IMG/VR virus record: IMGVR_UViG_2529293170_000019
Direction: 5' to 3' (one strand)
Source of the DNA: a virus
Taxonomy: Duplodnaviria; Heunggongvirae; Uroviricota; Caudoviricetes
Length of the DNA stretch: 30,696 nt
Position numbers: made by a program. Shown in pieces: positions 21,001 through 24,000 of the stretch. Within the stretch, counting starts at the first letter, position 1. Every line of letters begins with the position of its first letter.

Positions 21001-24000
21001 CGTACCCAGACTATCCGCATGATTCTGGTTGTCACGAATACCGAAGCTATTACGCTGAAAATCGACCCGTCGGTGGTACTGGCGACCCGTAAATACGTGG
21101 ATGATGAAGTCCTGGAATTAAAGCTGTATGTGGATGACCAGATGAGAAACCACATTGCCGCACAGGATCCTCATACCCAGTATGCGCAGAAACATAATCC
21201 GACATTTACCGGAGAACCAAAAGCGCCGACGCCTGCCACAGGAAATAACACCACGCGGATTGCGACCACTGCGTTTGTTCAGGCGGCTATTACCGCTCTG
21301 ATTAACGGTGCGCCTGCCACGCTGGATACACTGAAAGAAATTGCCGTAGCCATTAACAATGACCCGAAATTCAGCACCACCATTAACAATGCGCTGTCAG
21401 GTAAGCAGCCACTGGATGAGACGCTGACTCATTTGAGTGGAAAGGATGTTGCCGGTCTTCTCGCATACCTTGGTTTGGGAGAAGCGGCAAAGCGGGATGT
21501 GGGAACAGGGGAAAATCAGATACCGGATATGGCTTCTTTTGCCAGTGGTGATGGATGGATGAAATTACCCAACGGTAAAATCCTGCAATATGGTCGAGGT
21601 GCGGTTACGCCGACATTATCGACGCAAACAATGAGAATTACATTCAGCATCCCTTTTCCTAAAAAAGTGGACTGCGCCATGCTTACTCATTCTGGTGATG
21701 GTGGTGCACCTTTAGGTGCTGGACGGGGATTCGTGATGACCGCAGAAGGTCCAACATTAACCGGTTTTAATTCCGCTTACAGAACTGCATCAACCAGTTC
21801 CACAGTATCGATGAATTACAGTTGGTGGGCTGTTGGTGAGTAATTTTATTAAGGGTGATTTATATGAACGAATATGTTTATAGCGCAAGGCATAATGCTT
21901 TTTTCCCTGTGGATATGATTGATAAATATAAATCAGAGGGATGGGATTTATCAGATGCTAAAGAGGTGAATCAAAATATTATCAGTGAATTTATGGCTGA
22001 ACCGCCACAAGGAAAAATCCGTATTGCCGGAGGTGATGGGCTGCCTGCGTGGGCAGATATTCCTCCACCCACGCATGAAGAACTTATTGAAATTACTGAA
22101 TCAGAAAGACAGCTACTAATTAACCAGGCCAACGAATACATGAACAGTAAGCAATGGCCCGGCAAAGCCGCTATTGGTCGTCTGAAAGGTGATGAACTGG
22201 CGCAATATAATTTGTGGCTGGATTATCTGGACGCACTGGAGCTGATCGATACTTCCGGTGCGCCAGATATTGAATGGCCTACGCCTCCGGCAGTTCAGGC
22301 CAGATGACATCCGGCGCGGTGCTGGTATCTGTTGCCGTCACCGCGTCAATGTAATCCAGCACAGCGTTAAGTCTGGTTGTTTCTGCCTGCGTCAGTTTAC
22401 GTCCGGCCTGCAATTTCAGTTGAATCAGACTGATGGAAGCCATTGCTGCATCAATCAGTGACTGGCGCTGTGCTTCTGCCGCGTCTACTGCGGCACCGTG
22501 TTGTGCCTCAGTATCTGTCACCCATTTTTCACCATCCCATTTATCGTATGGCGTTAACGGGGCGATAGTGGTTGTTTTTTCGGGGTAATCACCCGGAGTT
22601 GTGATTTCTTTGGCGTCTCCCGTTTCGGTGTTATAGACGATTTCACCGCGATGGTCTGGCACATATTCCCATGAGTTTAAATCTATCGAACGGCAGATAG
22701 CATAACCCGCCTTATGTGTGCCAGGGGCATCTAAACAGGAATATGCAGGGATACCGACGCCAACAGCAAGATATTCATTTGAAGTGGAAATATATTCTCG
22801 AGTTTCACCATCATAGTTATAGACGGTAATATTCCCTGCTTTGGTGGCGATAATCTCGCTATTTAATATGGCGTTATCCATTATGCAGCCCTCACAATAT
22901 AGTTAAATGCAATATTCCTTGGTCGAACCCTAAAACCAGCCCCTGCGCCTGCTCCAGTTGGTGGCAATTCGATAGAGGGGTATGCTGTTGCAGGGGAATA
23001 TAAACCTTCACGGGAATCATAATCAGTCGTCATATAGTTAGACGTATTATCAGAAACAGTTTCTGTCGGTCTGGTAACCAGACGATAAGAGCCAGTGGTT
23101 GGTGACCTGACCAGACCAAAACTTTCAACCAGAGTGGCTTTTTGAAAGCTTAATAATCCCCGACCACTGTCAGCTCCACGCCCGTCATCCCAGCCACGAA
23201 TAAACTCACCACGTAAATCAGGCAATTTATTTGTCGGATAAGCCTTTGCCAGTTCCGGGTATTCTTCAGCAGAAAAAGCTGCACCGTTGCATTTCAGCCA
23301 GCCTGTCGGCGGAGTGGCTGAAGGCCATGGAACAGGTACACCAACAGGTAATGCCGAACCTTCTCCCAAACCAACGTTTATGAAAATGCAGAGATAACGG
23401 GCAACTGGCATCATCTCCGGTTTTTATTCAGGGGGATGCTCATGCTTATTGGCTATGTACGCGTGTCAACAAATGACCAGAACACGGAATTGCAGCGTAA
23501 CGCGCTGGAGTGCGCAGGATGCGAGCGGATTTTTGAGGATAAAATCAGCGGCACGAAGTCCGACAGACCGGGACTGAAAAAACTGCTCAGAACATTATCA
23601 GCAGGTGACACTCTGGTAGTCTGGAAGCTGGACAGGCTGGGGCGTAGTATGCGGCATCTGGTCATTCTGGTTGAGGAACTGCGCGAACGCGGCGTTAATT
23701 TTCGCAGTCTGACGGATGCTATTGATACCAGCACGCCGATGGGGCGTTTTTTCTTTCATGTGATGGGTGCCCTGGCTGAAATGGAGCGAGAACTCATTGT
23801 CGAGCGGACACGCGCCGGACTGGAAGCGGCCAGAGCCAAAGGTCGTATTGGTGGCAGACGTCCGAAACTCACCGCGAGTGAGTGGGAGCAGGTCGGACGG
23901 TTGCTGGCTGCGGGGGAATCTCGTCAACGTGTGGCGCTGATTTTTGATATTGGCCTGTCCACGCTCTATAAAAAATTTCCCTCATCAGCGACAAAGAATA

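Follow-up and report, generated by a model that had tools for sequence, protein, structure and literature searches.

Does a P2-like prophage that carries the genes for cytolethal distending toxin type V (cdt-V) also carry a switch for its tail fiber, and if so, is that switch still in use? The question is raised by IMG/VR virus record IMGVR_UViG_2529293170_000019, whose whole stretch of 30,696 nucleotides (nt) is referred to below as the window. Here, we analyze a segment of about 1.9 kb that begins inside the tail fiber gene H and ends a short distance upstream of a DNA invertase gene. A first-pass annotation of this DNA had proposed that the segment inverts between two 26-bp crossover sites and thereby replaces one C-terminal end of the fiber with another. 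Our analysis indicates that the locus is very probably a two-state, invertase-driven tail fiber switch of the type represented by the P segment of e14, the G segment of Mu, and the C segment of P1, situated in a P2-like cdt-V prophage.

Two oriented crossover sites bound the segment

Two inverted 26-bp sites are found exactly where the first-pass annotation had placed them, the left one (21458-21483) inside gene H and the right one (23361-23386) 55 bp upstream of the invertase start codon. The left site reads TTCTCGCATACC TT GGTTTGGGAGAA and encodes ...LAYLGLGE, and the right site reads TTCTCCCAAACC AA CGTTTATGAAAA. Both fit the 12-2-12 layout of the gix, cix, and pix sites, in which 12-bp imperfect inverted half-sites surround a 2-bp core. 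As had been anticipated, the central dinucleotides, TT (21470-21471) and AA (23373-23374), are complementary, which inversion requires. The perfect repeat between the sites, previously put at 14 bp, is likewise present but extends over 15 bp (TTGGTTTGGGAGAAG). Within 20000-24600, the top-ranked inverted repeat is the pair 21458-21484 and 23360-23386, with 81% complementarity over 27 nt.

Every 26-mer of the window was then scored against the 20 specified positions of a gix/cix/pix consensus (TTCTCNNAAACCNNGGTTTNNGAGAA), built from the Mu, P1, and e14 sites as taken from their sequence records, with 200 shuffles serving as a control. The kinship with these sites that had been suggested for the pair is borne out, at 19/20 for the left site and 18/20 for the right one. 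No third site emerges, since all other 26-mers of the 30.7-kb window reach 13/20 or less, and the best score among the 200 shuffles was 16/20, obtained once. Exactly two sites imply a two-state switch, and a shufflon, as in p15B Min or one prophage of enteropathogenic Escherichia coli (EPEC), is ruled out by this consensus scoring. A search with the bare 14-mer, allowing up to 3 mismatches, had given no signal (2 matches versus 2.6 expected) and was replaced by the 26-bp scoring.

Both orientations occur in natural genomes

Orientation was surveyed in 5,426 complete E. coli genomes, with 20644-24035 as the query both in its native form and after an inversion made by computer over 21470-23374. 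The inverted query matches E. coli O157 strain 493/89 (NZ_CP038412.1) at 100.0% over 3392 nt in one piece, whereas the best match of the native query is 95.8% identical and falls into two pieces. When the whole window is aligned to 493/89, 20,841 nt and 7,337 nt are collinear at 100% identity (28.2 kb), and only 21470-23377 aligns on the opposite strand in BLAST. The breakpoints lie within 21470-21484 on the left and within 23360-23377 on the right, inside the shared 15-bp core. By this alignment, the prophages of the window and of 493/89 differ solely by the predicted inversion. The inverted orientation, on whose detection the first-pass annotation had staked its proposal, therefore exists: 493/89 carries it in the exact form predicted, and both fusion proteins have been deposited.

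The two fusion proteins are not confined to this pair of genomes. In NCBI, the exact 399-amino-acid (aa) H protein of the window is found in 8 contigs according to the cluster table and in 11 according to a contig look-up, and the exact 439-aa H' protein of the inverted form, which is annotated in 493/89, is found in 27 and at least 24 contigs, respectively. Within the clonal O157:H7 lineage, a prophage with 94.5% identity is present 63 times in the window orientation and 73 times inverted. In addition, six independent draft assemblies have contigs that end inside a crossover site, a few bases from the central dinucleotide. They come from Yokenella, Citrobacter (two assemblies), Kluyvera, Photorhabdus, and one E. 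coli with the same prophage as the window (contigs L006, L007, L009, L012, and L021, at their first bases, and L086, at 5716-5731). The E. coli contig ends in ...CCTTCTCCCAAACCAA, exactly at ...CCCAAACCAA of the right site. Because a 15-bp repeat alone is too short to break an assembly, the simplest cause of these ends is probably that the cultures held both orientations. Judged by these comparisons, the segment inverts at exactly the two sites, both between prophages that are otherwise the same and, repeatedly, among related prophages, and the switch is active in nature today.

Each orientation joins the fiber to a different tip

Gene H (20644-21843, plus strand; 399 aa) combines a P2-type fiber N-terminal domain with a Gp53-like C-terminal domain. 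The former, Pfam Phage_tail_fib N-terminal domain, covers residues 1-150 (E 2e-62) and belongs to the constant part of the protein, Hc (20644-21469, plus strand), which comprises ~279 aa including the GLGE codons within the site. The tip now joined to Hc, Hv (21484-21843, plus strand), adds 120 aa after GLGE, in agreement with the length first estimated; it contains Pfam Gp53-like_C at H residues 307-398 (E 5e-12) and shows a weak match to a solved short-tail-fiber C-terminus (E 0.0097). Its chaperone gene, tfa (21864-22307, plus strand), encodes 147 aa with Pfam Caudo_TAP (E 1e-30). The start first assigned to tfa had to be corrected to 21864, a position that is also called as the gene start in the identical locus L085.

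The alternative tip, Hv' (22881-23360, minus strand), is not joined to Hc in the window orientation. It was predicted to supply an alternative in-frame C-terminus of about 165 aa, and we find the reading frame as predicted and the length to be 160 aa after GLGE. Hv' contains a Pfam Collar domain (E 1e-15), which resembles that of T4 gp37 and gp12, and matches the T4 gp37 fiber-tip structure 2xgf (E 6e-16). The corresponding chaperone gene, tfa' (22279-22881, minus strand; 200 aa; Pfam Caudo_TAP, E 7e-32), is silent in the window orientation, and its counterpart in 493/89, annotated as tfaE, lies directly downstream of the 439-aa H'. The view that each variable end has its own chaperone, in convergent arrangement, thus holds for both Caudo_TAP proteins.

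GLGE is encoded by both sites in the fiber reading frame, and because of this the constant N-terminus fuses in frame to either tip. When the segment is inverted by computer, the constant 279 aa of H continue into Hv' to give an open 439-aa H', with tfa' directly after it, as expected from the earlier claim that the frame is kept in both orientations. Measured between the site centers, the invertible segment (21471-23373) spans ~1903 bp, and its GC content is 0.468, compared to 0.526 for the whole window.

Several further features of the cassettes were observed. The convergent tfa and tfa' genes overlap tail to tail by 29 nt (22279-22307), exactly as tfaP and tfaE of e14 do, and a similar ...DTSxAPDxxWPxxP motif closes both chaperone proteins. 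Hv' is a mosaic with respect to e14 StfE: 23176-23360 and the last 14 codons are homologous, and the middle ~260 nt (22917-23175) are without DNA similarity, which suggests that a receptor-binding core has been exchanged between conserved ends.

The invertase and a candidate recombinational enhancer

The gene for the DNA invertase (23442-24035, plus strand; 197 aa) lies outside the segment and starts 55 bp past the right site. The protein belongs to the Pin/Gin/Cin family and contains Pfam Resolvase (E 8e-53) and HTH_7 (E 5e-13) domains. Its sequence identity is 86% with PinE, 76% with Gin, and 78% with Cin, and over residues 1-182 the protein matches the Gin structures 3uj3 (E 4e-94) and 4m6f. 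Ser9, known as the catalytic residue in Gin, is kept within the invariant motif GYVRVST, and the protein carries the wild-type Met114, whose replacement by Val makes Gin independent of Fis. Six residues have been reported as unique to Fis/enhancer-dependent invertases, namely, Hin K47, R/K48, and K/R51 in helix B and Q151, R154, and L155 in helix 1 of the DNA-binding domain. The corresponding residues in the window invertase are K46, K47, R50, Q150, R153, and L154, equivalent to Hin K47, R48, K51, Q151, R154, and L155, and R42 is likewise conserved. The numbering was transferred from Hin (window position equals Hin position minus 1) via an alignment to Gin and Cin and the Hin sequence. On the basis of its domains and its catalytic and regulatory residues, the enzyme is assigned to the Fis/enhancer-dependent subfamily of serine invertases.

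The first-pass annotation had held that a catalytically inactive invertase would speak against the switch. By its residues, the enzyme is intact; however, the argument itself does not hold, because members of the Pin family reportedly act on one another's sites in trans, so that inversion could proceed even with an inactive copy in place.

Serine invertases of this subfamily rely on a cis-acting enhancer with two Fis sites, which in the gin, cin, and hin systems is contained in the 5' end of the invertase gene, and a putative Fis-dependent enhancer can be placed at the same position in the window. In the P1 record, the Cin enhancer is annotated over nt 19-90 of cin, and the homologous stretch of the window is 23460-23531, which is identical to P1 at 56 of 72 positions and to e14 at 61 of 72, and whose center is 122 bp from that of the right site. 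We compared codon conservation across 32 invertase genes (window, e14, Mu, P1, and 28 loci from other species). Identity of codons for the same amino acid is raised over the first ~36 codons, and after correction for amino acid, the synonymous excess is found at codons 8-12 (+0.39) and 25-26 (~+0.4), ~48 nt apart. The spacing of the two Fis sites in the Hin, Gin, and Cin enhancers agrees with this distance. Among the 24-codon blocks of the gene, the one covering the annotated enhancer comes third, and the higher-ranking blocks all start 1 to 4 codons away; for the enhancer block, a one-sided Mann-Whitney test gives a p value of 0.014, a figure to be read with the caveat that the sequences are related by descent and that coding constraint is a confounder. 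The placement of the Fis sites within the stretch is based on the P1 annotation and the synonymous-conservation analysis, not on a published alignment. Altogether, 23460-23531 is a probable Fis-dependent enhancer, with which the data are consistent, short of proof.

The stretch from the right site to the invertase start codon also contains a motif, TGGCAT-N5-NNGC-TTTT (23406-23425), which is conserved between the window, e14, Mu, and seven further loci and is missing upstream of P1 cin. This motif is similar to a sigma-54 -24/-12 element, except that the window has GG in place of the expected GC. A terminator-like hairpin was also flagged over the TGGCAT motif, at 23403-23422. Rfam and tRNA scans of the whole window returned no matches.

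Proposed mechanism and rival explanations

We propose that dimers of the Pin-family serine invertase would bind both 26-bp sites and, with host Fis on the enhancer in the first ~90 nt of the invertase gene, would assemble a synaptic complex on supercoiled DNA. Ser9 would cut at the 2-bp centers (TT/AA), the subunits would rotate by 180 degrees, and the ends would be rejoined with ~1.9 kb flipped. The 279-aa N-terminus of H would then be fused in frame via GLGE either to Hv, followed by Tfa, or to Hv', followed by Tfa'. Only the cassette facing the late operon, under P2-type late transcription, would become fiber, and a population of lysogens would release two kinds of virions with different receptor specificities. 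Within this scheme, inversion presumably depends on Fis and the enhancer, and expression presumably starts from the late promoter only. Hv and Hv' carry domains homologous to receptor-binding fiber tips, a likeness at the level of domain homology only, and a difference in host range or receptor between the orientations would be expected by analogy with Mu and P1.

Some points weigh against such a switch. The evidence for inversion comes from comparative genomes only, and the count of 63 versus 73 fits frequent switching and a few inherited events alike. The enhancer signal is modest, arising from related sequences in which the 5' ends of genes may be constrained for other reasons; a simple consensus scan brought up no convincing sigma-70-type promoter for the invertase; and the assignment of different receptors rests on the said analogy with Mu and P1. 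Orientation counts across genomes by themselves measure no rate, and one could therefore regard the sites and the invertase as relics, with the orientations stemming from one or a few old, inherited inversions and no switching at present, a fate for which the decayed invertase of a relative, L008, with its premature stop at codon 146, would be a precedent. That the switch is such a fossil is nevertheless highly improbable: the window and 493/89 are 100% identical over 28.2 kb yet opposite in orientation, from which it follows that the inversion is younger than any point mutation between them, none of the catalytic or regulatory residues of the intact invertase is lost, and the six draft assemblies that break inside a site, one of them being of this very prophage, are what is expected if both orientations are present in culture. 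An explanation that dispenses with site-specific recombination altogether, through RecA-dependent recombination between short repeats or an artifact of assembly, could appeal to the inverted repeat that flanks the segment and to the fact that repeats can mislead assemblers. Efficient RecA-dependent recombination, however, usually needs at least ~20 to 25 bp of identity, and the perfect identity here is just 15 bp, which is also far below the length of sequencing reads. Furthermore, the sites show the full 12-2-12 structure of gix, cix, and pix, their cognate invertase lies 55 bp away, and both orientations are seen in finished genomes and in dozens of independent contigs, which makes this explanation extremely improbable.

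A different kind of rival asks whom the switch serves. On the minus strand, a leader open reading frame (ORF) begins with an ATG at 23414 or 23411, just outside the right site, and extends to 22881 (peptide MMPVARYLCIFINVGLGE...). The leader reads in frame through the right site into whichever cassette faces it and is present in both orientations; because it runs through the site, annotation pipelines call the silent tip as a gene in either orientation. It is also found in e14 (stfE), Shigella (L005), Mu, and loci L015 and L022, and is missing or closed by a stop in L010, L017, L026, and L034. Inversion of the e14 P segment has been reported to yield StfE2, which blocks adsorption of phage T2, and several Pin-family enzymes have been reported to flip that segment in trans (NAR 2025). 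It could thus be argued that the switch mainly serves the lysogen, in that the leader plus a tip would form a free fragment able to mask receptors and to block other phages, in the way reported for StfE2. The occurrence of the leader in both orientations and in the relatives named, the report on StfE2, a gene order as in the e14 P segment, and the identical right site all speak for this reading. As the main role, it is still decidedly unlikely: conservation of the leader is patchy, with four relatives lacking an open one, a sigma-70 consensus scan found no promoter-like site on the minus strand there, and the prophage appears complete and functional, so that fiber switching suffices to explain the upkeep of the system. 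The lysogen and fiber roles are compatible with each other, and, by analogy with StfE2, a second output of the switch might be a lysogen-expressed fragment, made of the leader joined to Hv' or Hv, that would mask receptors and exclude other phages; we consider this addition unlikely. If it were true, a toxin-converting P2-like prophage would have a phase-variable function in superinfection exclusion or defense, one that could be flipped by, or itself flip, other elements in the same cell through the trans-acting Pin family. The tail fiber switch described above remains the reading that we prefer.

Prophage backbone, toxin genes, and significance

The window was compared with the P2 gene set and order (int, C/cox, A, Q-P-O-N-M-L, lysis, V-W-J-I-H-G, FI-FII-E-T-U-D, ogr). 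In 493/89, the 100%-identical locus is annotated with a Cox family protein, replication endonuclease, portal, terminase, GPO scaffold, and P2-family capsid, together with baseplate V/W/J/I, sheath, tube, tape measure, gpD, and OgrK. By gene set and order, the backbone is assigned as P2-like (Peduovirinae). The toxin genes cdtC, cdtB, and cdtA (5981-8123, minus strand) lie between the replication and portal genes and have a GC content of 0.435, compared to 0.526 for the window. They are followed by a 780-bp AT-rich stretch (8124-8903; GC content, 0.39) that has no ORF of 60 aa or more.

In such a prophage, a two-state fiber would let the cdt-V toxin genes reach a broader range of bacteria. The switch also has practical consequences. 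Genome annotations routinely present the silent cassette as separate "phage tail protein" or "gp53-like" genes, and draft assemblies are interrupted at the site; recognizing the switch improves both annotation and the interpretation of assemblies. Finally, its near-identity to the e14 P segment ties an intact prophage to the recent claim of anti-phage proteins made by inversion.

Comparison with known systems

The first-pass annotation had described the locus as a switch of the Mu G or P1 C type in a P2 backbone. All structural parts of such a switch are indeed present (two oriented sites, an intact adjacent invertase outside the segment, two tips with chaperones, and a P2-type backbone), but the closest known relative is e14 P/PinE and not Mu or P1, because the right site is identical to that of e14, PinE and the window invertase share 86% identity, and TfaE and Tfa' share 90.5%. 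The sites of e14, an element of E. coli K-12, read CTCTCGAAAACC TT GGTTTGGGAGAA and TTCTCCCAAACC AA CGTTTATGAAAA, such that the right sites agree at 26 of 26 positions and the left sites have the same inner half. Both loci show the order tip, chaperone, inverted chaperone, inverted tip, and then an invertase outside the segment, with GLGE at the site. The tfa' gene and the ends of Hv' are 84 to 90% identical in DNA to tfaE/stfE, and Tfa is 56% identical to TfaP over 106 aa. The two systems differ in their setting: e14 is the lambdoid remnant of a defective prophage, in which StfP has a short N-terminus, whereas the prophage of the window appears complete and its gpH has a full P2-type N-terminus. 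They also differ in their tips, since Hv is just ~29% identical to the StfP C-terminus and Hv' matches StfE in its first ~80 and last 14 aa, with an unrelated middle, and in the length of the segment (~1903 bp in the window versus 1797 bp in e14).

With Mu G/Gin and P1 C/Cin, the window shares two inverted 26-bp sites with complementary cores, one of them inside the fiber gene, as well as two convergent sets of tip and chaperone and invertases that are 76 to 78% identical. The sites read TTATCCAAAACC TC GGTTTACAGGAA and TTCCTGTAAACC GA GGTTTTGGATAA in Mu and CAATCCTAAACC TT GGTTTAAGAGAA and TTCTCTTAAACC AA GGTATTGGATAA in P1, and P1 has its enhancer annotated at the homologous place in cin. 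In contrast, the variable parts are 120 and 160 aa in the window, ~335 aa in Mu, and >500 aa in P1, and the backbone of the window is P2-type. P1 differs further in that cin is on the far side, with its 3' end at cixL, whereas in the window, Mu, and e14 the site is upstream of the invertase gene. The Hin/H segment of Salmonella, which underlies flagellar phase variation, has the same invertase family, 26-bp site architecture, and Fis/enhancer contact residues. However, hin lies inside its own segment, the inversion of which moves a promoter, whereas the window invertase is outside the segment and inversion swaps coding ends.

The same layout is found in Shigella, Citrobacter, Pantoea, Rosenbergiella, and a record titled Vagococcus sp. 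In these related loci, one site is 70 to 134 bp upstream of the invertase and its partner 1.6 to 2.2 kb further, with complementary cores, TT/AA or TC/GA; a Salmonella locus has its site pair ~1.0 and 2.8 kb upstream of the invertase. In E. coli ECMA0423 (L008), the invertase gene (~5001-5561) has a stop at codon 146 and its flanks contain no consensus sites, and the copy of the switch at this locus has probably decayed. Another group of invertases (L034-L084), 61 to 64% identical to the window enzyme, is spread over many Beta- and Gammaproteobacteria and records labeled as other phyla. A site-like TTCTTGAAAACGTAGGTTTGTGACAA, or a close variant, is located 0.5 to 2.9 kb upstream in L036, L038, L049, L060, and L067, and the group probably represents a different mobile element.

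Among other P2-like prophages, the window shares the backbone and the position of the locus, between the fiber genes and the sheath gene. Fels-2 of Salmonella strains LT2 and LT7 differs by an inversion beside fin that swaps C-termini, a two-genome comparison and thus the same type of evidence as that for the window and 493/89. For two P2-like prophages of EPEC E2348/69, phase variation was found by whole-genome sequencing, and the accessible part of that report states confirmation by polymerase chain reaction for e14 only; one of these prophages has three repeats and four variants, compared with two sites in the window. Phage pro483 is 94% identical over the region, has an annotated DNA invertase, and carries a tip 98% identical to Hv. 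Unlike the Fels-2, EPEC, and pro483 prophages, the prophage of the window also carries cdt-V. A paper on P2-like fiber specificity mentions neither inversion nor pro483, and in the searchable literature we found no description of inversion in this cdt-V prophage. According to a 2024 survey, invertases with inverted neighboring genes are common at this P2 locus, a hotspot. The mechanism is a textbook one and inversion by an invertase has already been published for P2-like prophages, so the switch of the window is one more member of this family, bordering on the known, with the P segment of e14 as its nearest counterpart.

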